Origin: Halothiobacillaceae bacterium UBA5861 | GTDB taxonomy: Bacteria; Pseudomonadota; Gammaproteobacteria; UBA5861 | Length of the DNA: 64,000 nucleotides | Direction: 5' to 3' | NCBI GenBank assembly: GCA_002432635.1 | Contig: DJFX01000047.1 | Coordinates: 320,766-384,765, forward strand | Shown: positions 31,958 through 49,985 of the stretch, piece by piece | Numbering within the stretch: the first letter of the stretch is position 1 | Layout: each line of letters begins with the position of its first letter | Program-made: the position numbers and the translations under genes | The notes under the pieces: model-generated | What the model was told of the DNA's origin: nothing | The model's input: the letters and a program-made list of their open reading frames with translations, nothing else | Database searches by the model: none

Positions 31958-32617
31958 ATGTCTAACGAGGCAATGAAAAAAGCTGCCGCAGAATCTGCAA
32001 TCAGCTTTGTCACACCGGGTTCCGTGATTGGTGTAGGCACTGGCTCAACGACCAATTACTTTATCGAACTACTGGGCGACATACGCCAAGAAATAGAAGG
32101 CGCAGTAGCCAGCTCTGTTGAAACAGAAAAAAGGCTAAAAAACTCTGGCATTAATACTTTAGATCTTAACACCACGGGCACCTTACCACTTTATGTGGAC
32201 GGTGCTGATGAGGCCACCAAAGATAAACACTTGATCAAAGGTGGTGGTGGCGCTTTAACAAGAGAAAAGGTGATTGCAGCTGCAAGCTCCCAATTTATTT
32301 GCATCATAGATGAAACAAAGCTTGTAGGATATTTAGGAGCCTTTCCCTTGCCGGTCGAAGTCATCCCGATGGCGCGTAGCTATGTTGCACGAGAGCTCGT
32401 GAAGCTCGGTGGCCAACCACATTTCCGAAAAGGTTTTACAACAGATAATGGCAATATCATTCTCGATATCCACAACTTTGATGTACTAGACCCCGCAGCG
32501 ACTGAAAAGCAAATCAACCAAATAGCAGGAGTTGTAACAGTAGGTCTTTTTGCACAAAGACCAGCAGACATGTTACTTGTGGGACTTTCTAACGGCGAGG
32601 TAAAAAAATATACCTAG
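31958..32617 (+). CDS. rpiA: ribose-5-phosphate isomerase A
   Basis: GVGTGST and [11 protein letters not shown] motifs; start at ATG 8 nt after AAGGAG. Confidence 0.9.
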
Positions 32618-32696
32618 TCTCTCTACCCAGACATTTCCGGATAAACAGACTAGGCAACAATCAATGTTTTGCAAACAAATAAAGTAGAAAGGCGCT

Positions 32697-33089
32697 TTAT
32701 CGTTTAGAGAATTGTGTTGAACGACGTGCTTTATGCAAACCAACTTTCTTACGTTCAACTTTTCTTGCGTCTCGGGTTAATAAGCCAGCTTTTCTCAATT
32801 GCGGGCGAAGCTCCTCATTGTAATTGACAAGCGCTCTAGCAATACCGTGCCGTATCGCACCGGCTTGCCCACTATCGCCCCCTCCCACTACACTGACATA
32901 AACATCAAACTGGGATTGAGAATCAGTGACTTCAAGCGGTTGTCTAACAACCATTTTAGATGTTTCACGCCCAAAATAGTCATCCATCGACTGTTTATTG
33001 ATGGTGATTTCGCCGTTTCCTGGGCGTAAAAAAACACGAGCGCTTGATGTTTTGCGCCGGCCTGTCCCGTAATGTTGTTCCATGCTCAT
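32697..33089 (-). CDS. rpsI: 30S ribosomal protein S9
   Basis: 130 aa; [13 protein letters not shown] and C-terminal RRSTQFSKR. Confidence 0.95.
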
Positions 33090-33124
33090 AAGTTTTTTAA
33101 CTCGATTAATTTGACTTGTAACAC

Positions 33125-33553
33125 TTATATTTCAAGTGCTTGGGGCTGCTGTGCACTGTGTGTGTGAGAAGGACCTGAAAAAACTTTTAGCTTCTTGATC
33201 ATCGCCCTGCCAAGCGGATTCTTGGGCAACATACCTTTCACTGCCAGTTCAAAGACCCGCTGAGGGGACTTTTTCATCATGTCTTCAAAGTTAGCGGATT
33301 TCAGACTGCCAATATAACCCGTATGCCGGTGATACATTTTATTTTTAGCTTTGTCACCCGTTACAGTGATCTTATCTGCATTGACGATGATAATGTAATC
33401 GCCCGTATCTACATGCGGCGTATAAATAGGCTTGTGTTTACCACGCAAGCGTAAAGCAACTTCCGAGGCCAAGCGCCCCAAAGTTTTTCCTTCTGCATCA
33501 ATAACAAACCATTGACGCTTAACTTCAGCAGGCTTTGCACTAAAGGTTTTCAT
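33125..33553 (-). CDS. rplM: 50S ribosomal protein L13
   Basis: 142 aa; [21 protein letters not shown]-terminus. Confidence 0.95.
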
Positions 33554-33636
33554 TTTATGTCCCGTACCGAGTGATTAATCGCAGCTTTTGAGCTAAAAAG
33601 ACGCGAAATAATAGTTGATTTCAACAAGATTCGCAA

Positions 33637-35382
33637 CTAAAACTTTTGATTGACAAACCGTTTTTCAATCGAATAAGGGAAGACGTTCTCCTGGACACCT
33701 GAGTTTATAGCTGCTTGTTTTTCCTTCCAAAATTGAGGATCAAGAAGCTCTTTATGATACTTCATAAAGGGTTCTCGAACACGAGGATGACTACAGAAAA
33801 ACGCCTCGAACTCTTCCGGAAAAACATCATTGGGCTGCGCGGAATACCATTGACCACCTGACAACACAGCCTCACCAAAAGGTGACGCTGGAATTGTCCG
33901 GAAGCGGCACTCTGTGAGATAACACACTTCGTCATAATCATAAAAAACCACTCGTTTATTACGAGTCACGCCAAAATTTTTATACAACATATCACCAGGG
34001 AAGATGTTGGCAGCAACCATCTGCCGGATGGCATTGCCATAGTCCAATATAACCTGCTCAAGCTCCTGATCATTGGCGTGTGATATAAAAAGATTAAGCG
34101 GTTGCATACGCCTCTCAATATATAGGTGTTTGATGAGTATCAGATCTCCCTCTTGCTCAATACTGTTAGCACAGGTCGCAAATAATTCATCAAGAAGCTC
34201 TTGTGTCATTCGGTTACGAGGCAAGGCGACATCCGAGTATTCCATGGAGTCAGCCATGCGGCCAACCCTGTCATGCTGTTTAACCAATTGATACTTTTCG
34301 ATCACTGTCTGTCGGGTAATACCTTTTTTTTGGGGAGCAAATTTATCCTTAATCACTTTAAAAACATAAGGGTAAGACGGCAGCGTAAACACCATCATCA
34401 CCATACCTTTGATACCCGGCGCGATGATCAAGTCATCTTCTGAATGATTCAAGTGATAAAGAAAGTCTCTGTAAAATGCCGTTTTACTTTGCTTATGGAA
34501 ACCGATCGCCGCATAAACTTCAGCACTTGTTTTAGTGGGCAGCATGTTTTGCAAAAAGCTGACAGTCGCTGAAGGGACATCAGTTTGCGCCATAAAATAA
34601 GCACGTGAAAAACTAAAGATCTTCGAATGTTCTCTTTCATCTAAGAGAATGGTATCAACATAAATTTCCCCCCGTGAATTCTGCAGTAAAGGCACAATGA
34701 ACGGCGTCACTTCATGCCCATTCACAGCTTTGCCAATAATGTACGCGGCTTTATTTCGAAAAAAGAGGGAGTTCAGTATCGTAATATAGAAATTCAAGTT
34801 TGCATGATGAGGCCGAGCGGGCAAGTTTTGGCGTAGATAGTGAATAATACGTCTCACGTCTCGCCTCAAATCAAAAAACGAATTTTTCAAATTAAAGCTT
34901 TTTAAAATCGTCTCAATCGTAGCTCTGAAGCCATGTTTCGCGGGGTAATAATTATGGTAAACCATGTCATCGAAGTCCAAATATTCCGACGACATCGATG
35001 AACGTACAAAAATATTGTCGTTGTTATAGTAGCTGCGGTGAAATAGTTTGCAAAAGACGGTGTTGTAATAACTTTCAGCGAGCTGTGGTTGCTTGTGATT
35101 CAACAGCAAACGTACATAACGTAACTTGAGTTCTTGAAAATTTTCATCACTAAAATGTTGAATACGAAATTTTGTTTGTAGTATCTGAACAGTTTCATCA
35201 ACACGCTTGGTGTAGTAATAAATACGGTCACGGGAAGCCTGTTGCACGGCAGGCCAATCCGCCCGCTCAAAACGCGCTTGGGCGCCTGCTGTAATTTCGC
35301 TAAACAGTGTAAAGTGCTTTTCGAAACCATCCAGGATGGTTTTCGCAACAGCTTTAATCGTTTTTTTTGTTTCTCTACTCAC
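33637..35382 (-). CDS. aceK: isocitrate dehydrogenase kinase/phosphatase
   Basis: 581 aa; N-terminus LDGFEKHF...AQARFERADWPAVQQA matches E. coli AceK. Confidence 0.9.
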   Translation of the reverse strand: MSRETKKTIKAVAKTILDGFEKHFTLFSEITAGAQARFERADWPAVQQASRDRIYYYTKRVDETVQILQTKFRIQHFSDENFQELKLRYVRLLLNHKQPQLAESYYNTVFCKLFHRSYYNNDNIFVRSSMSSEYLDFDDMVYHNYYPAKHGFRATIETILKSFNLKNSFFDLRRDVRRIIHYLRQNLPARPHHANLNFYITILNSLFFRNKAAYIIGKAVNGHEVTPFIVPLLQNSRGEIYVDTILLDEREHSKIFSFSRAYFMAQTDVPSATVSFLQNMLPTKTSAEVYAAIGFHKQSKTAFYRDFLYHLNHSEDDLIIAPGIKGMVMMVFTLPSYPYVFKVIKDKFAPQKKGITRQTVIEKYQLVKQHDRVGRMADSMEYSDVALPRNRMTQELLDELFATCANSIEQEGDLILIKHLYIERRMQPLNLFISHANDQELEQVILDYGNAIRQMVAANIFPGDMLYKNFGVTRNKRVVFYDYDEVCYLTECRFRTIPASPFGEAVLSGGQWYSAQPNDVFPEEFEAFFCSHPRVREPFMKYHKELLDPQFWKEKQAAINSGVQENVFPYSIEKRFVNQKF

Positions 35383-35607
35383 TTAAATATCTGGGGCCGT
35401 AAATAGTGATGCGTCCGAAGCTCTAGCATGACTCAATGAAGGAAACCCACTCACGTCAAAAAGCGGATGAATGTTGTATTAAAGAACTACGTGAATACAA
35501 TAAAATTTTGTATCAATCCAGAGGAGCAAAACTCACTCCTCTGAATATATTCATCTATCCGTTAAATATAAGTAATTGATAGATTAAGGGCTCTACTCAA
35601 AAACCAA

Positions 35608-36861
35608 TCACATTGCTTGTATCTTAGCGATCAAGGCATCGGCAAACTTGCTTGTGGAAAGCTCAGTTGCATCTGGCATTTGCCGCGCAAAGTCATAGGT
35701 CACGGTTTTATCAGCAATCACTTGCGGATATACGTCATTAATGAGCTTAGCCGCTTCACGCCAACCCATGTAATCCAGCATCATCACGCCCGATAATAAA
35801 AGAGAGGATGGATTCACTTTATCTTGCCCGGCATATTTTGGCGCGGTGCCATGAGTAGCTTCAAAAACGGCTACATGATCGGCAATATTTGCACCAGGAG
35901 CAATACCCACGCCTCCAACCTCGGCCGCAACTGCATCTGACAGGTAGTCACCGTTCAGATTCATTGTCGCCAATACATCAAACTCGGCTGGCCGCAACTG
36001 CATAAGCTGAAAAGTAATGTCCGCAATGCGGTCATTGATCACAATTTTTCCTTCTGGGCGCTTGCCTTCATATTTTTCCCAAAGCTCATCTTCAGTGATA
36101 GTGACATCACCAAACTCTTCTTTGGCCACTTCGTAGCCCCAGTTCCGGAAAGCGCCTTCGGTGAACTTCATAATGTTACCTTTGTGCACCAGGGTCACCG
36201 TATCGCGCTCATTATCTATCGCGTATTGAATAGCTTTACGTACCAGGCGCTTAGTCCCAAAAGCACTGATCGGCTTAATGCCCAAACCGGCATCTTCAAA
36301 AAAATCAACACCCATTTCCTCACGTAAAAACTTGGCCAGCTTTTTGTTTTCAGGCGTACCAGCTTCATATTCAATCCCGCTATAAACATCTTCTGTGTTT
36401 TCACGGAAAATCACGACATCGACATCATCAGGCTTGCGCATGGGCGAGGGAACACCCGAATAATATTTCACTGGACGGACGCATGCATACAAATCCAACT
36501 CTTGACGCAATGCAACATTGAGCGATCGAAAGCCGCCACCTACAGGTGTAGTTAAGGGGCCTTTAATCGAAATAATCAGGTCTTTAAGGGCGGCCAAAGT
36601 TTCTTCAGGGAAATAATCCCCATCATAGATACCGGCTGACTTTTCACCCATGAATAGCTCAGCCCAGTAAATTTTCCGCTGACCACCATAAGCTTTTTCA
36701 ACGGCTGCATTCCAAACCCTAAGACTTGCATTGGTGATATCCGGGCCAATCCCATCCCCTTCCACATAACCAATAATAGGGTTATCAGGGACAACAAGCT
36801 TGCCGTTTTCTACGGTGACTTTTTTGCCACCTTCAGGGATTTTTACATGCTGGTAACTCAT
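35608..36861 (-). CDS. icd: NADP-dependent isocitrate dehydrogenase (E. coli type, AceK-regulated class)
   Basis: 417 aa; [39 protein letters not shown]-terminus, near-identical in pattern to E. coli Icd. Confidence 0.95.
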
Positions 36862-37104
36862 ACATATCTCCTAGTTAAGGCTCCTTTTGGGGCCGTAAGT
36901 GTTTTATCTTTATTTGAAGCAAATGAGCCTGGATAAGGTATCTGCTTTATTTAAATGTCAGCGACACCATAGTGCCGAACCAAGGGTCATGAGGATTATG
37001 AAAATGGATCGAGGGCCGCCTCGTTTAGTTTCGCTAAACAGGCTTATTTTAACGTAGTTTCATTTGTTTTTTCAGACACACTGCCTCCTCAACTGAGTAA
37101 ACCT

Positions 37105-39201: not shown

Positions 39202-41361
39202 ATGAAAAAAACGCTTTTTATCACCGCATGTTGGCTACTTCTGACTAACAGCCTCTCAGCCGATACGCAGTGTTCAAATGAAAATATTTCGCAAGGTAAT
39301 ACCGACAGTATTCACCTTTTGCCCGAAGAAACAACTCGTATTTCCTCGGACTACCTGCTATTCGACGGCAGCAGCAGCTTCAAACTCGAAGGCAACGTCA
39401 ACGTTCTTGACGCAGATAAGCAGCTGTTTTCCAATCAGGCACGCTACGATAAAGCCGCACAAACCATTACCGCGAGTGGCGCGATCCGCTTTCAAACGAC
39501 AGACCTTACCGTGCTCGGTGAGCAGGCAGAACTGAACCTTGAGCGTGAAACGTTCACCATTGACAGCGCAAGCTACCAATACACCACGACCGTCCAAACT
39601 GCTCAGGGCCGCGCACAGCGTGTGATGCGAACAGGCTATGGCGTGCTTAAACTCACCGATGCAACGTACTCCAGCTGTCCCCCTGAAAATGAGAGCTGGC
39701 GCATCGAAGCATCAGAGGTCAACCTAGACACCGCAGCCCAAGCAGGCTCAGCGAAGCACATCAAACTGTATTTTCAAGATACCCCTTTTTTCTACTTTCC
39801 CTGGTTTGGCTTCCCGCTCGGCGATCAGCGTAAAACCGGTTTTCTTGCCCCCAGTGTGGGTTACAGCACTCGGCACGGAGCCGATATCGCCGCTCCCTGG
39901 TACTGGAACATCGCACCCACGGCAGACGCCACGTTCATACCTCGGTACCTGGAAGATCGCGGTTTACATCTTGACACGGAGCTTCGCCACCTCAATCAAG
40001 CAGGGCTGTGGGCCCTGAATACCGGTTATATTGATGATAACGAACAATCACAGGAGCGAAAATTTGCCCGCCTGCGTCAGACAGGCCAGTTTGGCTCTCG
40101 CTGGGAAACCGCCATTGATGCCAGCTATGCCTCTGACCAAGACTATTTCGATGACTTTGGCGATGAATTTTCAAACTCAGACATTGAGCACCTCCCACGC
40201 CGGGCCAGCCTCAAGTATCAAGGCGATCACACCGACTTTAGCCTGCTGGCACAAGGACACCAGACACTGGATCCAGACACGCCGATCACCGACCGCCCTT
40301 ACCGCCAGCTCCCCAAAATCAACTTGAATGCCTACTCCGACCGAGACACAGACACCCTGCAATATCGCATCAACACTGAGTGGACACGCTTTGACCGTGA
40401 TGAGTCCGTAACAGGTGACCGCGTTCTTCTGCAACCCCGGCTTTCCTGGCCTCATAAGCAGCCCGGCTGGTTTGTCATACCCTCGACCAGCCTTTGGCAT
40501 AGCCAATATCAGCTCGACAACCAAATGTCGGGGATAGAAGCCTCTCCCAGCGTCACGACCCCTGTTTTTTCTCTGGACAGCGGCCTGTTTTTTGATAGAA
40601 ACCTGAAAAATGGTGGATTGCACACCCTGGAACCTCGGCTTTATTACCTCTTCGCGGCCCATGAAGACCAAAACGACATCCCTGACTTTGATACCAGCCT
40701 GAATAGCTTCGGTTTCAACCAGCTTTTTCGGGAAAACCGATTCTCAGGGTATGATCGAATGGGCGATGCCAACCAGATAGCCTTGGCTCTGACAACCCGG
40801 GTTTTATCACCCCTGGGCCAAGAACAACTCACCCTTTCGCTGGGACGATTGTTTTACCTCCGTGACAGAAAGGTCACCTTACCCGAAGACGCCATCGAAA
40901 CATCTGAAATGTCGAGCCTGGCCTTTCAAGGCTTTTACCACGTCGCACCCCAATGGCGACTCGAGAACGACCTGCTCTGGGACCCCAAAACCGAGCGCAC
41001 TGAGCTTAGCAGTGCGTCGCTTCGTTACCAAAACAAGCAGAATGATTCGCGGTTTTGGCTGGCCCACCGTTACCGCCCAGAAGAAACCGAACGGGACGAA
41101 ATCGAACAGTTAGAGGCCGAATTCCTCTGGCCGGTTACCGGCCGCCTCTCGCTTTCTGCTAAAGCACTTTATGCTGTGCGAAGTCGCGAAACCATCGACC
41201 AAATGGCAGGGGTTCAGTATGATAGCTGCTGCTGGGCATTGAGGCTTTCCGCCCGCAAAAAAATAGACGAAAACAACGAAGAGCAGGAAGCCTATTACCT
41301 CGAATGGGTGCTCAAAGGGCTGACATCACTGGGTGAAAGTGCCGGCAGATTATTTGAATAA
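39202..41361 (+). CDS. lptD: LPS-assembly outer membrane protein LptD
   Basis: 719 aa, signal peptide, OstA-like N-terminal domain and large beta-barrel; followed by surA-pdxA as in the conserved operon. Confidence 0.9.
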   Translation: MKKTLFITACWLLLTNSLSADTQCSNENISQGNTDSIHLLPEETTRISSDYLLFDGSSSFKLEGNVNVLDADKQLFSNQARYDKAAQTITASGAIRFQTTDLTVLGEQAELNLERETFTIDSASYQYTTTVQTAQGRAQRVMRTGYGVLKLTDATYSSCPPENESWRIEASEVNLDTAAQAGSAKHIKLYFQDTPFFYFPWFGFPLGDQRKTGFLAPSVGYSTRHGADIAAPWYWNIAPTADATFIPRYLEDRGLHLDTELRHLNQAGLWALNTGYIDDNEQSQERKFARLRQTGQFGSRWETAIDASYASDQDYFDDFGDEFSNSDIEHLPRRASLKYQGDHTDFSLLAQGHQTLDPDTPITDRPYRQLPKINLNAYSDRDTDTLQYRINTEWTRFDRDESVTGDRVLLQPRLSWPHKQPGWFVIPSTSLWHSQYQLDNQMSGIEASPSVTTPVFSLDSGLFFDRNLKNGGLHTLEPRLYYLFAAHEDQNDIPDFDTSLNSFGFNQLFRENRFSGYDRMGDANQIALALTTRVLSPLGQEQLTLSLGRLFYLRDRKVTLPEDAIETSEMSSLAFQGFYHVAPQWRLENDLLWDPKTERTELSSASLRYQNKQNDSRFWLAHRYRPEETERDEIEQLEAEFLWPVTGRLSLSAKALYAVRSRETIDQMAGVQYDSCCWALRLSARKKIDENNEEQEAYYLEWVLKGLTSLGESAGRLFE

Positions 41362-41397
41362 CATCACTCCCAATATTATGGAGTCTTAGATACAACC

Positions 41398-42714
41398 ATG
41401 ATGACACGCTTTATTGCAATCACACTTGCTTGCACGTTAGTGACACTCACCCATACAACACACGCAGCAATAACTTCCCTGCAAGGGGAGCGCCTGTTAA
41501 ACAGGATTGTTGCTGTCGTCAATGACGATATCATTTTGCTTAGCGAGCTGAATGCAGAAATATCATCACAGAGAAAACGTGCCAACGAACGTGGTCAGAG
41601 ACTCCCGCCTGAGAACCGTTTCAGGCAGCAGATTCTCGACTACCTGATTCTACAAACACTGCAAAAACAAGTGGCCAGAAAACAAGGCATCCGCATTGAT
41701 GATGCCGCACTCAACCGTTCGCTACAACGAATTGCACAACAAAATCAGCAGTCACTCGATGAGTTTAGGCAAGCGCTGCTTGCAAGCGGCTATGATTACC
41801 TCAAATTCAGAGAAGATATCCGAACAGAGATGCTTATTGCCCGTGTTCGGCGTCAGGAAGTTGTTGCCAAAGTGACCGTCTCTGATCAAGAAGTCAACGA
41901 TTTCCTCGAGCGTGAGAAGCCTACAGAAGAAAATGCTACCAGCTACCACCTGTTTCACATCCTCATTGCAGTTCCCGAGGCCTCCAGCCCCGAAGCCATT
42001 CAACGTGCTCGAGAAAAAGCCGACAACCTGGTCCGTGAATTTGAGGCCGGTAGTGACTTTTCCAGCCTGGCACTGGCCTACTCCGATGGCAATAATGCCT
42101 TGGAAGGCGGAGATCTGGGCTGGCGCTCACTCGAACAAATCCCCTCGCTGTTTACCGATATCGTGGGCAACATGAAAGTGGGTGATATTACTCAACCCAT
42201 CCGCAGCCCCAACGGATTTCACCTCTTGCATTTAAGTGACAAAAAAGGTGCGGATAAATTACTGATCAACCAGACCAAAGCGCGACACATTTTATTAAAA
42301 GTCACCGCTGTTAGAAACGAGGAGCAGACCCGAAACAAACTGCTTGAGTTGCGCGAACGCATTCTTGCCGGGGAACCTTTCGCGGACATAGCCCGGGCTC
42401 ATTCCGAAGATACCGCCAGTGCCGTGGATGGTGGCGACTTACCCTGGTTTGGATCAGGAGAAATGGTCGAAGTATTCGAAGATGTCGCCGAAAGCTTATC
42501 CGTCCACGAAGTCAGTGACGCCTTTCGATCAACCTTCGGCTGGCACATCCTTGAAGTGTTGGGGAGGCGCACCCACGACGCCACGGAAGAACAACAACGC
42601 TTACAAGTAAAACGAGCGCTGCAACGGCAAAAAGTCGAAGAAGAAACGGACTTTTGGTTACAACGGCTCAAAGGCGAGGCCTATATTGAATACCGACTGG
42701 ACGAAAACACCTGA
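41398..42714 (+). CDS. surA: periplasmic chaperone / peptidyl-prolyl isomerase SurA
   Basis: 438 aa, signal peptide, two parvulin domains (GGDLGW repeated). Confidence 0.9.
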
Positions 42715-42724
42715 TGACAGCCCC

Positions 42725-43714
42725 ATGTCTATCACGCCACGCATTGCAATAACCCCTGGCGAACCTGCTGGCATTGGTCCGGAGCTCGCCGTCCAGCTCA
42801 TACAAAAAGACTGGCCGGCCCAAATCGTCTGGGTAGTCGACCCCCAACTGCTACAAGCGCGTGCCGAACAGCTCCACTTGCCCATACAAATCACTTCGTA
42901 CCAACCTCATACCCCGGTGACTCCATCAAAAGCGGGCACAGCTCTCGTCCTGCCTGTTCCGCTCGCCGCACCCTCAATACCAGCAAAACTCGACACACAA
43001 AACGCAGATTACGTCCTGCAAACACTCCGCATTGCGACTCAAGGCTGTTTGGACAACACCTTTTCGGCACTTGTGACCGGACCCGTGCATAAAGGCATTA
43101 TTAACGATGCTGGCACGCCTTTTTCAGGCCATACCGAATTTCTGGCAGAGCTCACCCATGCCTGGCCTGTCATGATGTTGGCAGCCGGAGACCTGCGAGT
43201 TGCGCTGGTCACCACCCATCTGCCTCTGGCTGACGTAGCCAGACAAATCACCCCATCTCGGTTATCACGAGTGATTCGAATCTTGCACAAGGACCTCCGC
43301 GAAAAATTCGCCTTGGACAATCCACGTATCCTGGTTTGTGGCCTCAACCCCCATGCTGGGGAAAACGGGCACCTGGGCCGGGAAGAAATAGACATCATCA
43401 TCCCTATACTGAAACAGCTCAAAGACGCAGGCATGAACCTTGTAGGGCCCTTACCGGCAGATACCTTATTTACTCCAGCCAACCTGGCCAACGCCGATGC
43501 GGTGCTCGCCATGTACCATGACCAGGGGTTACCGGTTCTTAAACATATCGGCTTTGGCAATGCGATTAATATTACCTTGGGATTACCAATCATCCGTACC
43601 TCAGTAGACCACGGCGTTGCACTGGATTTAGCCGGCACAGGCAAAGCGGACAGTGGCAGTTTTAACGCAGCACTCGAACTCGCCTGTCAGATGGCACACA
43701 AATATGATCTATGA
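42725..43714 (+). CDS. pdxA: 4-hydroxythreonine-4-phosphate dehydrogenase
   Basis: [14 protein letters not shown]-terminus and [15 protein letters not shown] motifs matching E. coli PdxA; start at internal Met after the surA stop. Confidence 0.9.
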
Positions 43715-43837
43715 AGAACTCAGTGCTGAGTGTTCTCAATTACGTCATTATTAACGCTATGATGACCGCAAAGTCAGCCAGCGAATCCTGTACCTTACGT
43801 TATTGATCTTACGTGCCCTTATCTACGAGTGAGTGCC

Positions 43838-44977
43838 ATGCTACCCCAACAACCCCAAGCCCTTTCCGATACGTTCGTGCGGCCCGCAAGCTGGGCGGAT
43901 TTGGACGCCTTGGTCAAAATCGAACAGCGTTGTTTCGAAACCGATCGCCTCTCGCGGCGCAGTTTCCGCCACTTTCTCAAGCGCGGGAAAGGTACGCTTT
44001 TAGTCTACGATGCCGGTGACGGCCCCATCGGCTATGCCTTGGTCCATTTCCACGCCGGCACCGCGCTGGCGCGCCTGTATTCCTTCGCCGTGCTGCCCGA
44101 AGCCCAAGGCCGGGGCGTGGGTCGATTGCTGCTTGAGGCAGCGGAAGGCGCCTCCCGCGAACACGGTTGCCTGGCCATCCGGCTGGAGATCCGCCGGGAC
44201 AACGAGAAAGCCAAAGCGCTGTACTCAAGCGCCGGTTATCGCGACCTGGAGCAACTAGAGGACTACTACGAAGATCACGAAGACGCGGTGCGGATGGAAA
44301 AGTCGTTGGCGCCCCAGCCCGACCGCGGTGTCACCCGAGTGCCCTACTATGCCCAAACCCTGGAGTTCACCTGCGGGCCGGCCTCGCTCATGATGGCGAT
44401 GAAAAGCCTTAACCCGGATCTGCCGCTGAACCGCAAACTGGAACTGCAAATCTGGCGAGAAGCCACCACCATATTCATGACCTCGGGCCTGGGAGGCTGT
44501 GGCCCCGATGGTTTGGCGCTGGCTGCGCACCGTCGGGGGTACGAGGTCGAGTTGATCCTGAAAGACGAACAAGCCTTGTTTGTCGATTCGGTCCGTTCGG
44601 CCGAAAAGAAGGAGGTCATCGCCCAGGTGCATGAAGACTTCAAGGAACAGATTCTCTCCGCCGACATCACGGTGCGCTACGGTGCAGTGCGGGTGGACGA
44701 GTTGGAAATGGCGATTCGGGAGGGTGCCGTGCCGGTGGTCCTGATCAGCTCCTATCGGCTTTACGGCGAAAAAACCCCGCACTGGGTGGTGGTCACCGAT
44801 GTGGCCGATGGGATCGTCTATCTCCACGAGCCCTACGTCGATTACGAGGAAAACCGAACGCCCATGGACTGCATGAACGTGCCGATTTTGAGCGAAGAGT
44901 TCGAAGGCATGGCCCGTTACGGACGCAGCGGTCAACGCGCCGTGGTCATCCTGAAGCGGCACGGAACGCACGTATGA
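43838..44977 (+). CDS. fusion protein: RimI-like GNAT N-acetyltransferase + papain-like (peptidase C39-like) cysteine peptidase domain
   Basis: GNAT motif AQGRGVGRLLL; C-terminal domain with Cys motif TCGPASLMMAM and His motif HWVVVTDV typical of C39-type peptidases. Confidence 0.7.
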   Translation: MLPQQPQALSDTFVRPASWADLDALVKIEQRCFETDRLSRRSFRHFLKRGKGTLLVYDAGDGPIGYALVHFHAGTALARLYSFAVLPEAQGRGVGRLLLEAAEGASREHGCLAIRLEIRRDNEKAKALYSSAGYRDLEQLEDYYEDHEDAVRMEKSLAPQPDRGVTRVPYYAQTLEFTCGPASLMMAMKSLNPDLPLNRKLELQIWREATTIFMTSGLGGCGPDGLALAAHRRGYEVELILKDEQALFVDSVRSAEKKEVIAQVHEDFKEQILSADITVRYGAVRVDELEMAIREGAVPVVLISSYRLYGEKTPHWVVVTDVADGIVYLHEPYVDYEENRTPMDCMNVPILSEEFEGMARYGRSGQRAVVILKRHGTHV

Positions 44978-46452
44978 GTCGTCACGTTGTGGTCGTCGAC
45001 CAACCCGCCGAATGGCAAGATGACTTGCCCGAGAGCCTGTTGCTGAGCGCCCGCGACTATATCGCAGGTCAGGATTTCGGGACCAATCCCACAGTCAAAG
45101 TGATCAACCTCTGCCGCAGCTATCGCTATCTCGGCGTGGGCTACTACGTCTCGCTCCTGGCGGAGGCCCGCCGTCACCGGGTGATTCCCTCGGTGCGGAC
45201 CATGCTCGATCTATCGCGCAAAACCATCTACCAGTTGGTCACTGAAGAACTCGACGAGGACCTGGCGCGGCATCTAAAGCGGAACCAGGAAGACCAGATC
45301 GACTTCGTCATGTATTTCGGTTACACGCAGCAAGCCGATTTACAGCCGCTGGCCAATGTCCTGTTCGACCGCTTCCCGACGCCGATTCTCCACGTGCAAC
45401 TGCGTCGCAGCGGCAAATGGCAAATTCACAAGATCACGACCCGGGGACCGGCTGATATCACGGCGGATGAGCGCAGCACCCTCACCGACGCCCTCAACAG
45501 CTATCTGGGTAAACGGTGGCGCGCGCCCAAAGCCCGTGCCGTGTCCCGTTACGACCTGGCGATCCTTCACAACCCGGAGGATACCCTCTCGCCCTCCAAC
45601 CCCAAGGCGCTGCAATCGTTCATCCGCGCCGGAAAACGGCTGGGCGTGGACGTGGACCTGATTACCCGGCGGGACTATCCGCAAATCGCCGAGTGGGATG
45701 CCTTGTTCATCCGGGAGACCACCAGTATCAACCACCACACGTTCCGCTTCGCCAAACGGGCCGAAGCCGAAGGCATGGTGGTCATCGATGACCCCACGTC
45801 CATTCTTCGATGCACCAACAAAGTCTACTTGGCCGAGCTGCTCCGTACCCATCGGGTGGGCACACCCCGAACCGTCGTGTTACAGCGCGATCGGTCCACT
45901 GCGGAAATCGAAAAGCTGGGATATCCGGTGGTGCTGAAAATTCCGGACGGCGCGTTTTCGCTGGGTGTATACAAGGCCAATACGCCGGCGGAATTCGACG
46001 AGATCGCCACGCGTTTGTTCAAAAAATCGGACCTGATTTTGGCCCAGGAATTCCTCCGCAGCGAGTTCGACTGGCGAGTGGGGATTTTAGGCGGAAAACC
46101 GCTGTTCGCCTGCCAATATTTCATGTCACGCGGACACTGGCAGATCTACCAACACAAGGCTGATGGCCGGTTCGTCGAAGGTGAGGCCCGGACCCTGGCG
46201 GTGGAAGACGCACCGAAAGATGTCATTCAGACCGCGCTAAAAGCCGCCAATTTGATCGGTGACGGCCTCTATGGCGTCGACCTCAAGCAAACCGACCGGG
46301 GGGTGTTCGTCATTGAGGTCAACGACAACCCCAACCTGGACGTGGGTGTGGAAGATTTGGTGCTGAAGGACCGCTTGTACCAGATGGTGATCGAAGAATT
46401 CGTCCGCCGGCTGGACCGACAGCAGGAAAAAGCGGCTCGGCGTTTCACATAA
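44974..46452 (+). CDS. RimK-type ATP-grasp ligase with ~190 aa N-terminal extension (RimK-like ATP-grasp N-terminal, RLAN-like domain)
   Basis: C-terminal ATP-grasp motifs (YPVVLKIPDGAFSLGV, LAQEFL, VDLK..VIEVNDNP); ATGA start/stop overlap with the upstream gene. Confidence 0.75.
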   Translation: MSRHVVVVDQPAEWQDDLPESLLLSARDYIAGQDFGTNPTVKVINLCRSYRYLGVGYYVSLLAEARRHRVIPSVRTMLDLSRKTIYQLVTEELDEDLARHLKRNQEDQIDFVMYFGYTQQADLQPLANVLFDRFPTPILHVQLRRSGKWQIHKITTRGPADITADERSTLTDALNSYLGKRWRAPKARAVSRYDLAILHNPEDTLSPSNPKALQSFIRAGKRLGVDVDLITRRDYPQIAEWDALFIRETTSINHHTFRFAKRAEAEGMVVIDDPTSILRCTNKVYLAELLRTHRVGTPRTVVLQRDRSTAEIEKLGYPVVLKIPDGAFSLGVYKANTPAEFDEIATRLFKKSDLILAQEFLRSEFDWRVGILGGKPLFACQYFMSRGHWQIYQHKADGRFVEGEARTLAVEDAPKDVIQTALKAANLIGDGLYGVDLKQTDRGVFVIEVNDNPNLDVGVEDLVLKDRLYQMVIEEFVRRLDRQQEKAARRFT

Positions 46453-46818: not shown

Positions 46819-47946
46819 ATGACCACCAAAAAGCGATTATCTCGACGATCCTTCCTAAAAAACAGTGCCGGCGTTGCTGGTATGGTTGCATTCAGCAGCA
46901 GCTTGCTACCCAGACTGGCACAGGCAAAAGATTTAACCGTTGGTTTCATTTATGTGGGTGCAAAAGACGACTACGGCTATAACCAATCGCATGCAGAAGG
47001 TGCCGCTGCGATCAAAAAACTAGGCGGCATCACCGTCGTTGAAGAAGAGAATGTCCCCGAATCGGTTGAAGTGCTTAAAACCATGGAAAGCATGATCAAC
47101 TTTGATAGCGTTGACCTCTTGTTTCCAACCTCCTTTGGTTATTTTGATCCATTTGTTTTGCAGCTGGCGTCCAAATACAAAGACCTCCGGTTTGAACACT
47201 GTGGTGGCCTGTGGAGCCCTGAGCACCCAAAAAATGTCGGCTCTTATTTTGGTTACATTGGCATGGGGCAATATTTAAATGGCATCGCTGCAGGCCATGC
47301 CAGCAAGAGTAAGAAAATCGGTTTCGTTGCCGCAAAACCCATTCCTCAAGTGTTGTTAAACATCAACTCCTTCTTGCTCGGAGCCCGTTCAGTCGACCCC
47401 AGCATTACCTGCCAGGTCATTTTCACGGGAGAATGGTCACTCGCCGTCAAAGAAGCTGAAGCGACCAACGCCTTGATTGACCAGGGTGCAGACGTCATTA
47501 CCTGCCACGTTGATGGTCCTAAAGTGGTCATCGAAACAGCAGCAGGTCGCGGAGCTTATGTCTGTGGTTATCACGCTAACCAAAGCACCCTCGCACCAGA
47601 AAAATACCTGACAGGAGCTGAGTGGAACTGGGCAAATGTTTACACCAATATGGTTCAAACCGTCCAGGCCGGTAATACGATCCCTAACTTTCATCGTGGC
47701 GGACTGGCAGAGGGGTTTATCAAAATGAGTCCACTGGGTCCGGCTGTTTCCGACACGGCCAGGAAGCAATTTGAAGAAACCCAAGCGAAAATCCTTAAAG
47801 GAAACTATGCGGTCATTCAAGGTCCCATGAAAGACAACAAAGGCAACCTGATTGCCAAGGCAGGCGAATCATTTGTCGAAACAGATGTCGCACTGGAAAG
47901 CATGGACTATCTGGTAGAAGGCGTTATTGGTTCCACGTCTTCCTAA
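46819..47946 (+). CDS. BMP-family (basic membrane protein/PnrA-Med-like) ABC transporter substrate-binding protein with twin-arginine signal
   Basis: Tat motif SRRSFLK, signal ending AQA; BMP-family fold motifs. Confidence 0.8.
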   Translation: MTTKKRLSRRSFLKNSAGVAGMVAFSSSLLPRLAQAKDLTVGFIYVGAKDDYGYNQSHAEGAAAIKKLGGITVVEEENVPESVEVLKTMESMINFDSVDLLFPTSFGYFDPFVLQLASKYKDLRFEHCGGLWSPEHPKNVGSYFGYIGMGQYLNGIAAGHASKSKKIGFVAAKPIPQVLLNINSFLLGARSVDPSITCQVIFTGEWSLAVKEAEATNALIDQGADVITCHVDGPKVVIETAAGRGAYVCGYHANQSTLAPEKYLTGAEWNWANVYTNMVQTVQAGNTIPNFHRGGLAEGFIKMSPLGPAVSDTARKQFEETQAKILKGNYAVIQGPMKDNKGNLIAKAGESFVETDVALESMDYLVEGVIGSTSS

Positions 47947-47964
47947 CTGAACGAGCACGCCATA

Positions 47965-49065
47965 ATGCCGCTTGACAGTCCCCTGCTCCAGCACCTGGCT
48001 CGACGCTCAGAGGCGATCGCCATTCCTCTCATCGCACTGGCGGCAGGTTTTATTTTGTTTGCCCTCTTTTTACTGCTCCAGGGACAATCACCCGCGAACT
48101 ATTTTGCGCTTGTCTACAAGGCCGGTTTTGGTACAGCCTTTTCCTGGCAGAATACGCTCACACGGGCGTCCCCTCTCATCCTGGCAGCTTTGTGCGTCGC
48201 GCTCCCGGCGCGTCTAGGCCTGATTGTTATTGGTGGTGAGGGCGCGATTGTGCTTGGCGGTGTCGCAGCCAGTGCATTCGCCATGTTTTTTCCAGGCGCC
48301 ACAGGTCTTGTCGGGCTTTTATTGATGGGGGCCAGTGCTGCCGCAATGGGGGCACTCTGGATTGGGCTGATTGGTCTGATGCGATACGGGCGCGGCGTTA
48401 ACGAAACCATTTCCAGCCTCTTGATGGCCTACATTGGTGTGGCGCTCATGAATCATCTGGTCGAGGGCCCACTGCGAGATCCCAGCAGCTTGAATAAACC
48501 GGCGACGTACCCGCTGTCTGCTGAACAACGGTTGGGGAGCCTTCCAGGCCTGGATATCCACTGGGGCCTTGTAATCGGGATCGTCAGCTGTTTTCTGGTG
48601 TGGATTTTGATGACCTATACGCGCTGGGGATTCTCTGCACGCGTTGCCGGGGGTAATGTACGCGCTGCACAAGTCCAAGGCTTACCGGTTGGCATACTGA
48701 TCGTTGGCTTTACGGCTTTAGGTGGCGCCTTTGCTGGCCTTGCTGGCATGGTAGAAGTGGCTGCCGTACACGGCACTGCAAATGCTTCGTTGGCGTCAGG
48801 CTACGGTTACACCGGAATACTGGTTGCCTTTCTGGCGCGACACAATCCACTGGTTATTATCCCTGTTGCCGTTCTACTCGGTGGGTTCGAGGCCGCTAAT
48901 GGCCTTGTGCAACGGCGCATGGATTTACCCGATGCGACTGTTCTGGTTCTACAGGGTTTTGTCTTTATTTCCATCCTCATCAGCGAAACACTCTACGGCC
49001 GTATTCGCCTGTTTAACCCGGAACATTGGAAAATAACACCGGCAACCATGAGAGAAAACTCATGA
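47965..49065 (+). CDS. ABC transporter permease (BMP-type, YufP-like)
   Basis: 366 aa polytopic membrane protein directly downstream of the BMP binding protein. Confidence 0.8.
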   Translation: MPLDSPLLQHLARRSEAIAIPLIALAAGFILFALFLLLQGQSPANYFALVYKAGFGTAFSWQNTLTRASPLILAALCVALPARLGLIVIGGEGAIVLGGVAASAFAMFFPGATGLVGLLLMGASAAAMGALWIGLIGLMRYGRGVNETISSLLMAYIGVALMNHLVEGPLRDPSSLNKPATYPLSAEQRLGSLPGLDIHWGLVIGIVSCFLVWILMTYTRWGFSARVAGGNVRAAQVQGLPVGILIVGFTALGGAFAGLAGMVEVAAVHGTANASLASGYGYTGILVAFLARHNPLVIIPVAVLLGGFEAANGLVQRRMDLPDATVLVLQGFVFISILISETLYGRIRLFNPEHWKITPATMRENS

Positions 49066-49985
49066 CAACTGACATTGGACTCTGGGGCGTGCCTCTCGCA
49101 ATTATCGGCGGCGCCATTCGTGTTTCAACACCGTTTTTATTCGTGAGCCTGGGCGAGTGCTTAACTGAACGTTCAGGCCGTATTAATCTTGGATTAGAAG
49201 GCACACTCGTCTTTGGCGCCATGTCTGGCTATGCTACCGCTTACCTCACCGGGTCACCCTGGCTGGGCGTGCTTGCGGCGGCTATCTGTGGCTTTGGCTT
49301 TGGGCTGGTACATGGGTGGATATGCGCTCTTCCACGGGTTAATGATATCGCCGTTGGAATAGCTCTGATGCTATTTGGCATGGGCCTGGCTTTTTTCTTT
49401 GGCAAACCCTTTATTCAACCTGTCGCGCCAGACCTGCCAACTATTAACCTGGGGGCCTGGTCAGACATCCCCCAAATCCAGGCTGCGTTAAAAATCAATG
49501 TGTTATTTATTATTGGTATTGTACTGGCCGTCACCATGGCCTGGATGTTTCGCAACACTCAACTGGGCCTGACCATTCGAGTCGTGGGCGATAGCGATGC
49601 TGCAGCTCGTGCCATGGGTTTAAAAACGAATAGGATACGTTTTCTCAGCACAGCGTGTGGAGGGGCTTTAGCAGGTATCGGCGGTGCCTACCTGTCTCTT
49701 TACTACCCCGGCAGCTGGAACGAAGGCTTATCTTCCGGCCAGGGCTTAATGGCCGTAGCACTGGTGATCTTTGCTCGCTGGAACCCACTGAACTGTTTCT
49801 GGGCGGCCCTTTTATTCGGTGGTGCAGGTGCGTTAGGCCCGGCACTCCAGTCCATTGGCATCACCCAGGGGTATTATCTTTTTTATGCCGCACCTTACGT
49901 TTTGACCTTGGCGTTATTAATTGCAACCAGCTCACCTTCGAAAGCACTCACCGGCGCTCCCGGTGCGCTGAGCATTACCCGTTAG
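49062..49985 (+). CDS. ABC transporter permease (BMP-type, YufQ-like)
   Basis: Internal start MTTDIGLWG overlapping the upstream stop (ATGA); polytopic. Confidence 0.8.
   Translation: MTTDIGLWGVPLAIIGGAIRVSTPFLFVSLGECLTERSGRINLGLEGTLVFGAMSGYATAYLTGSPWLGVLAAAICGFGFGLVHGWICALPRVNDIAVGIALMLFGMGLAFFFGKPFIQPVAPDLPTINLGAWSDIPQIQAALKINVLFIIGIVLAVTMAWMFRNTQLGLTIRVVGDSDAAARAMGLKTNRIRFLSTACGGALAGIGGAYLSLYYPGSWNEGLSSGQGLMAVALVIFARWNPLNCFWAALLFGGAGALGPALQSIGITQGYYLFYAAPYVLTLALLIATSSPSKALTGAPGALSITR

Follow-up and report, generated by a model that had tools for sequence, protein, structure and literature searches.

Several described systems pair an ATP-grasp ligase with a peptidase, an acetyltransferase or both. 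In mammals, N-acetylaspartylglutamate (NAAG) is synthesized by NAT8L together with RIMKLA/B. In the glutathionylspermidine synthetase/amidase and phytochelatin synthase systems, an amide made by an ATP-grasp enzyme is reversed or re-used by a cysteine enzyme of the papain superfamily, which works via an acyl-enzyme. RimK has a co-transcribed, dedicated protease, RimB, which trims Glu from poly-glutamylated RpsF and stimulates poly-alpha-glutamate synthesis (PMC11957791). The N-acetylglutaminylglutamine amide (NAGGN) pathway uses Ngg, which combines a GNAT with an ATP-grasp domain, together with AsnO and an M42-type aminopeptidase, so that its operon unites a GNAT-ligase with a peptidase (PMC8070244). 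CtaG, which HHpred assigned to PF11814/BtrH, has been shown to be a Cys-His-Asp transacylase that cooperates with an iterative ATP-grasp enzyme (PMC7183216). This study was concerned with a gene that fuses a GNAT acetyltransferase to a papain-fold, C39-like cysteine peptidase domain (DUF3335), and with the RimK-type ligase gene that overlaps its end. Both lie in a stretch of 64,000 nucleotides from Halothiobacillaceae bacterium UBA5861 (GCA_002432635.1, contig DJFX01000047.1, positions 320,766 to 384,765), which is referred to here as the window. The fusion protein is a member, already present in public records of metagenome-assembled genomes (MAGs), of a catalogued and functionally unexplored family. 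By analogy with RimK and RimB, we tentatively favor the reading that the two genes form a self-contained, cytoplasmic, mobile module, in which three activities would build, trim and cap one and the same peptide chain.

The fusion gene is an open reading frame (ORF) that runs from an ATG at position 43838 to a TGA at position 44977 on the forward strand and encodes 379 amino acids. An alternative in-frame GTG at 43829 would give 382 amino acids, but the ATG is favored because the closest homologues are also 379 amino acids long. The gene is further supported by the Pfam matches of its two halves, to a GNAT model and to PF11814, and by its ratio of nonsynonymous to synonymous substitutions (dN/dS) relative to a close copy, which is given below. 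The sequence-only reading of this stretch had reported the same ORF and quoted three motifs within it, and all of them were found in place: AQGRGVGRLLL at residues 89-99 (44102-44134), TCGPASLMMAM at residues 178-188 (44369-44401) and HWVVVTDV at residues 315-322 (44780-44803). No signal peptide was detected in the fusion protein or in the partner ligase, and both are cytoplasmic as judged from their sequences.

The C-terminal domain of the fusion protein (residues 168-373; 44339-44956, forward strand) matches PF11814 (DUF3335, "Peptidase_C39 like family") over the entire profile, positions 1-206 of 206, with an E-value of 4.9e-86 and 287.9 bits against a cut-off of 25, a match far beyond chance. 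The classical C39 models remain below their thresholds, PF03412 with 13.3 bits against 22 and PF13529 with 20 bits against 24. An AlphaFold2 model of this domain alone is confident, with a predicted local distance difference test (pLDDT) score of 87.5 and a predicted TM-score (pTM) of 0.88, and the domain has a papain-like fold. A search of the PDB sequences with the whole protein returned GNAT matches only and no solved structure related in sequence to the C-terminal domain. The predicted catalytic set consists of Q173 (44354-44356), C179 (44372-44374), H315 (44780-44782) and E331 (44828-44830), with the Gln placed six residues ahead of the Cys, which is the same spacing as in papain and in C39 enzymes. 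Q173, C179 and H315 are invariant in 55 close homologues. Conservation was also counted, over aligned residues only, in 150 representatives of clusters formed at 50% identity. The Gln of the oxyanion site is kept in 114 of 115 of these representatives, the Cys in 111 of 116 and the His in 127 of 130. The acid position, which is part of a "D-P" motif, holds Asp in 119 of 124 representatives and Glu in only two, and it is Glu331 in the window protein and in its 95% identical relative (the L001 copy, described below). The change from Asp to Glu is conservative and is regarded as compatible with activity; since the gene is under purifying selection, the variant is presumably still active.

These results bear out the sequence-only reading in its claim of a C39-like cysteine peptidase domain with intact Cys and His. 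The profile search that it had proposed for the C-terminal half assigned this half to PF11814 and to no non-peptidase fold. Because the papain-fold assignment holds and both Cys and His are conserved among homologues, neither of the two observations that would have spoken against the claim, a non-peptidase fold or loss of these residues, was made. The Cys/His/Asp triad that it had expected is present, with Glu as the acid of this protein where Asp is usual in the family.

A second cysteine of the domain, C221 (44498-44500), lies in the sequence GGCGP (44492-44506). It is present in 124 of 138 aligned representatives and is invariant in the 55 homologues, and the glycine-rich loop that carries it is the sole low-confidence stretch of the domain model. 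This residue could act as a lid, as a redox switch or as a second nucleophile.

The N-terminal half contains a RimI/Ard1-like GNAT domain (residues ~13-157; 43874-44308, forward strand), which matches Pfam Acetyltransf_1 (PF00583) with an E-value of 2.3e-16. The best NCBIfam model for this domain is rimI (TIGR01575), with 85.7 bits against a cut-off of 86.4, a narrow miss that leaves the domain below the equivalog level. Some of the fusion homologues pass this cut-off, and NCBI names those RimI or S18-alanine N-acetyltransferase. Archaeal Ard1 (4pv6) and bacterial RimI (2cnm) are its best solved relatives in sequence as well as in fold, with Foldseek TM-scores of 0.84-0.90 to the target. The acetyl-CoA motif QGRGVG occupies residues 90-95. 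E117 (44186-44188) is the equivalent of Glu103 of RimI and is invariant in the 55 homologues, and Y129 (44222-44224) corresponds to Tyr115 of RimI in the alignment with the Salmonella enzyme (2cnm). The domain also retains the NAT-type "YY" loop, YYEDHEDA (44264-44287), which N-terminal acetyltransferases use to hold the peptide. Pfam, NCBIfam, PDB and Foldseek therefore agree with the RimI-type GNAT and acetyl-CoA motif recognized earlier.

The fusion of these two domains is widespread. Relatives were found in at least 594 species genomes, with one genome counted per species. Most carriers are Gammaproteobacteria, for example Macondimonas, Competibacter, Thiohalomonadaceae, Methylococcales, Ectothiorhodospira and Immundisolibacter, and some genome bins are labelled Acidobacteriota. 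A word-indexed search gave thousands of matches, and in all 120 of the matches listed both GNAT and PF11814 were present; the NCBI product name [quoted passage not shown] is borne by several of them. An exhaustive search with the C-terminal domain gave 630 clusters at 50% identity. Among 85 representatives with a complete domain, 55 carry the GNAT, 19 have another N-terminal extension, nine consist of the stand-alone domain and two are tandem duplications. The fusion is also mentioned in a 2023 survey of papain-like enzymes (PMC10318531). The sequence-only reading had called the fusion unusual, and in this it was mistaken, as this architecture prevails in a catalogued Pfam family.

The gene directly downstream encodes a ligase of 492 amino acids (44974-46452, forward strand), which was identified from Pfam, PDB and gene order. 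It consists of an N-terminal RLAN domain (residues 26-172; 45049-45489; PF14401, E-value 2.1e-48) and a RimK-type ATP-grasp module (~45607-46377; PF08443, E-value 1.7e-10, 41.2 bits against a cut-off of 21), both on the forward strand. The ATG of the ligase overlaps the TGA of the fusion gene in a 4-nt ATGA (context GT-ATGA-GT), an arrangement that is typical of translational coupling and that supports co-translation of the two predicted products. Of 83 loci from about 80 species, 78 have an RLAN ligase gene as the next gene downstream, in the same orientation. In two of the remaining loci the two genes are neighbors but convergent, a further locus stops short of the place where the ligase would be, and two are without a ligase. 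The gap between the aligned segments of the two genes measures 5-70 nt in 58 of the 78 same-strand loci and ranges from 0 to 227 nt overall. Gene order thus gives strong support to the functional link with the adjacent ligase that had been proposed from the sequence.

No third conserved gene was found when all ORFs of at least 90 amino acids from 81 loci were clustered. The other large clusters are mostly antisense shadow ORFs within the two GC-rich genes. Long antisense ORFs are also present in the window copy, among them 44255-44971 (238 amino acids) and 45340-45852 (170 amino acids), both on the reverse strand. They recur in homologous loci and are shadow ORFs of GC-rich genes, not genes.

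The pairing persists where the GNAT is missing. For example, locus L090 (4703-6957) encodes a stand-alone DUF3335 protein followed by an overlapping gene for an RLAN protein of 490 amino acids, locus L087 (3039-5260) has a stand-alone DUF3335 gene between two RimK-type genes, and in P0154 a single predicted ORF joins DUF3335 to RLAN. Therefore, the conserved core is the papain-fold cysteine enzyme and the RimK-type ligase, and the GNAT is a frequent third activity.

The ligase scores below the NCBIfam cut-offs for both the RimK family (TIGR00768, 82.6 bits against 143.4) and LysX (79 bits against 275.6), and a PDB sequence search gave Pseudomonas and E. coli RimK as its nearest solved relatives, followed by LysX. 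RimK is a single ATP-grasp unit of ~300 amino acids, and the ligase departs from it by the additional ~170 amino acids of RLAN. Residues 45-68 of this domain (45106-45177) form an almost invariant motif, N-L-C-R-S-Y-x-Y-x3-G-Y-Y-x-S-L-L-A-E-A-R-x-H. Written more closely, it reads NLCRSYxYLxxGYYVSLLAEARxH. A profile search of the PDB sequences with RLAN gave nothing credible (best E-value 0.12), and a word-indexed homologue search with RLAN alone gave mostly fragments and no new architectures. Because of its invariant motif and its lack of a solved sequence relative, RLAN may itself be a catalytic or a substrate-docking domain. Iyer et al., in a 2009 paper that PMC10318531 cites, reportedly defined RLAN and probably first noted the association. 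The Klebsiella CfmP ATP-grasp protein is TupA-like and unrelated.

The two genes make up a cassette (43829-46444) that was horizontally acquired, as indicated by its foreign composition and its near-identity to a segment of a distant genome. Over these 2616 bp the window is 95.6% identical in nucleotides to the cassette at locus L001, which belongs to a MAG labelled "Pseudomonadota" (GCA_034189865.1). The similarity breaks off within ~10 bp of the coding regions of the two genes, and the genes that flank the L001 copy are unrelated. Locus L001 has a GC content of 59% throughout, and the composition of the cassette there matches that of its host. In the window, by comparison, the cassette genes have 59-61% GC against 50% for the whole window, and both have a GC content at third codon positions (GC3) of 0.74, whereas lptD, surA, pdxA, the Bmp gene and two permease genes have 0.50-0.57. 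Composition and identity together are the marks of a recent lateral transfer of only two genes. At the cassette borders there were no tRNA genes, mobility genes or integron-like sites, and the repeats were short and at chance level only; scans for Rfam families, promoters and terminators gave nothing above background. None of the small downstream ORFs of the window falls into the segment in common with L001, so no small ORF was transferred with the cassette. Relative to L001, dN/dS is 0.13 for the fusion gene, whose peptidase half alone gives 0.07, and 0.10 for the ligase gene, with values for individual parts from 0.07 to 0.23. Both genes have been under purifying selection since the two copies diverged. 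Neither protein matched any PADLOC family at an E-value of 0.01 or below, and the PHROGs search gave generic acetyltransferase and RimK-like families but no further link to phages. An exporter or precursor gene was found neither conserved in the 81 loci nor within the cassette.

In the module that we favor, the RLAN and RimK-type ligase would attach amino acids to a carboxylate; analogy with its nearest solved relatives points to alpha-linked L-glutamate as the most likely one. Its product would be an oligopeptide, probably acidic, which would be free or would form the C-terminal tail of a common cellular protein. The DUF3335 domain would cleave this chain through Gln173, Cys179, His315 and Glu331, and would thus stand to the ligase as RimB stands to RimK, as its hydrolytic counterpart. 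The fused GNAT would acetylate a free alpha-amino group of the peptide, possibly at an N-terminus newly exposed by the peptidase domain, and so cap the chain. An acetyltransferase that acts on the amine released by its neighboring domain would explain why the GNAT is fused to the peptidase. Since only two genes were transferred, the substrate would have to be something that every host already has. The domain identities, the intact catalytic residues, the gene pairing with its translational coupling, the purifying selection and the horizontal mobility are shown by the data; what we infer is the substrate, the sequence of the steps and the choice of hydrolysis over transfer for the cysteine domain. 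The sequential processing and N-acetylation of a ligase-made peptide or tail that the sequence-only reading had suggested is a reasonable idea and comes near to this model.

Several points weigh against the module as proposed. First, RimK extends C-termini and RimI-type GNATs act on N-termini, so that the three activities can meet only on a short peptide or on a cleavage product. Secondly, the specificity for Glu is a guess, because the ligase is below the RimK cut-off and has a similar score for LysX. Third, the papain-fold relatives CtaG and phytochelatin synthase are transferases, not hydrolases, and the partner ligase has the extra RLAN domain with an invariant motif of its own. Fourth, the 19 N-extended representatives among the 85 carry 91-172 amino acids without a GNAT match in phmmer, and a Pfam scan of ten of the 19 gave no GNAT match. 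Because of these members, acetylation is not essential to the core function, and acetyltransferase activity seems, from their sequences, to be dispensable in some lineages. The N-termini of P0162, P0211, P0222 and P0258 appear GNAT-like by eye and have no recognizable acetyl-CoA motif, and these proteins retain the catalytic motifs of the peptidase. Lastly, the literature search found no experimental function for any member of the family; among the papers searched, PF11814/DUF3335 is mentioned only in PMC10318531 and PMC7183216.

The transferase relatives are the starting point of another reading, unlikely in our judgment though the main alternative, in which the two genes form a biosynthetic assembly line. 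The DUF3335 domain would be a transpeptidase or transacylase whose acyl-enzyme at Cys179 is resolved by an amine in place of water, and the outcome would be a small peptide metabolite with an N-acetyl group, such as a compatible solute, a storage compound or a signal. A cysteine domain that transfers rather than hydrolyzes has parallels in phytochelatin synthase, BtrH and CtaG, and a comparable logic is found in NAGGN synthesis, in mammalian NAAG synthesis and in the step from glutathione to phytochelatin. However, the pair is not accompanied by a conserved carrier protein, amidotransferase or exporter. The GNAT most resembles acetyltransferases of protein and peptide N-termini and not those of amino acids, the NAGGN synthetase model (TIGR03103) gives 22.2 bits against a cut-off of 569, and the metabolic genes near some of the pairs, described below, are on the opposite strand and not universal. 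A specific version is a minimal assembly line that is free of carriers and independent of nonribosomal peptide synthetases, in which the ligase makes a short peptide as the unit, the cysteine domain polymerizes it or passes it to an acceptor and the GNAT caps it, and which would yield an undescribed class of N-acetylated oligopeptides or a protein tag. We consider this version likewise unlikely. If it were true, its product class would be common in gammaproteobacteria and readily exchanged among them.

A paralogous module for ribosome modification is a rather improbable explanation. Here the ligase would glutamylate the C-terminus of bS6 or of another protein, the GNAT would acetylate the N-terminus of bS18 and the peptidase would trim the tail, which would make the ribosome modification tunable. 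On the 30S subunit, bS6 and bS18 are paired as a heterodimer, and this proximity of both known targets counts in favor of such a module. The GNAT has rimI as its best NCBIfam model, and some members of the family bear the annotation S18-alanine N-acetyltransferase. Among solved structures the ligase is closest to RimK, for which the pairing with RimB is a precedent. Yet both the GNAT and the ligase fall below the equivalog or subfamily cut-offs, the ligase carries ~170 amino acids of RLAN that RimK is without, and no ribosomal genes occurred in any neighborhood examined.

[quoted passage not shown] The sequence-only reading had offered a self-immunity or maturation module as its alternative, which finds no support: no precursor, transporter or toxin of such a module is in or next to the cassette, and neither a PADLOC hit nor a signal peptide was obtained.

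The favored module of ligase, peptidase and N-acetyltransferase is of interest for several reasons. The fusion itself is no discovery, as it is a catalogued architecture with a standard product name. The combination of a peptide ligase, a cysteine peptidase and an N-terminal-type acetyltransferase in a compact, strictly paired and mobile module of many hundreds of species is what deserves attention. A functional solution would assign roles to two Pfam families, DUF3335 and RLAN, and its outcome could be a new system of protein-tail modification or a new small N-acetyl-peptide metabolite. In addition, the cassette functions with no more than the two genes that were transferred, which makes it an easy target for heterologous expression.

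In the window, the cassette lies between lptD-surA-pdxA (39202-43714) and the genes of a Bmp/PnrA-type ABC transporter (46819-49985), which encode a binding protein and two permeases; an ATPase gene does not occur between them. In E. coli, lptD-surA-pdxA are followed by rsmA-apaG-apaH, which are replaced here by the cassette and the transporter. A contig of a Porticoccaceae MAG (GCA_003526045.1) matches the window with 100% identity and has the same order of lptD-surA-pdxA, cassette and Bmp transporter. In the stored copy of that MAG (locus L084, 4883-7507), the ligase region is broken by runs of N into fragments of 43, 309, 58 and 56 amino acids that are annotated "partial", unlike the window, where the ligase gene is intact. 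The part of the window with the lowest GC content is 32000-37000 (0.42-0.47), which contains aceK (33637-35382) and icd (35608-36861), both of them ordinary genes on the reverse strand.

Metabolic genes occur near some of the related pairs. In 21 of the 81 loci (within L012-L080), argE precedes the fusion gene on the opposite strand, in about 19 of them as its immediate neighbor, and argA has such an upstream, opposite-strand position in 15. The loci with argE or argA do not form a tight clade, with a mean identity of 65% among them against 61% overall. In two relatives of 77% identity (L092 and L093), the pair is beside genes for arginine decarboxylase, agmatinase and carboxynorspermidine dehydrogenase/decarboxylase, which lie downstream. 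These neighbors may hint at arginine, N-acetylglutamate or polyamine metabolism or may reflect mere synteny; they are on the opposite strand and not universal.

The locus was also compared with the known systems. The bacteriocin-processing C39 domains of PCAT/AMS transporters (PCAT1, ComA, LahT) differ from the present domain, which is cytoplasmic, fused to a GNAT, outside any transporter and below the PF03412 threshold. Isolated C39 domains that have been solved have 135-151 residues (6mpz, 5xe8, 7s5j), compared with ~206 here, where extra helices are inserted. Unlike the bacteriocin C39 systems, the locus has no gene for a double-glycine substrate nearby, and no ribosomal precursor gene of the kind that defines graspetide and microviridin clusters is present. 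The enzymes of glutathionylspermidine and phytochelatin metabolism belong to the CHAP and C83 families, respectively (Alr0975 structure), use glutathione and spermidine as substrates and have no GNAT. CtaG, with CtaD, of the closthioamide pathway and BtrH are papain-fold transacylases that work with ATP-grasp enzymes; these thiotemplated systems depend on carrier proteins, which are not encoded here. CtaG is related no more than distantly, and the CtaD ATP-grasp is not of the RimK type.

The NAGGN and NAAG systems likewise combine an acetyltransferase with a RimK-like or other ATP-grasp ligase and a peptidase around a small N-acetylated peptide. Here, however, the GNAT is fused to the peptidase and not to the ligase, the peptidase is of another class and there is no amidotransferase. 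The best functional analogy is the RimK-RimB pair (RimABK) of Pseudomonas, in which a RimK-type ATP-grasp enzyme is likewise accompanied by a co-transcribed peptidase (PMC11957791). RimB, an aspartic enzyme, is retropepsin-like, whereas the peptidase of the present locus is a papain-fold cysteine enzyme with a fused GNAT, and its ligase has the extra RLAN domain, a RimK score below the cut-off and no RimA-like gene beside it. The window protein is a full member of the family of PF11814-GNAT fusions. It deviates from the family in having Glu331 in place of the usual Asp and in being encoded by a recently imported cassette, and it agrees with the family in its full-length profile match, in the majority architecture (55 of 85 representatives) and in the same downstream partner (78 of 83 loci).

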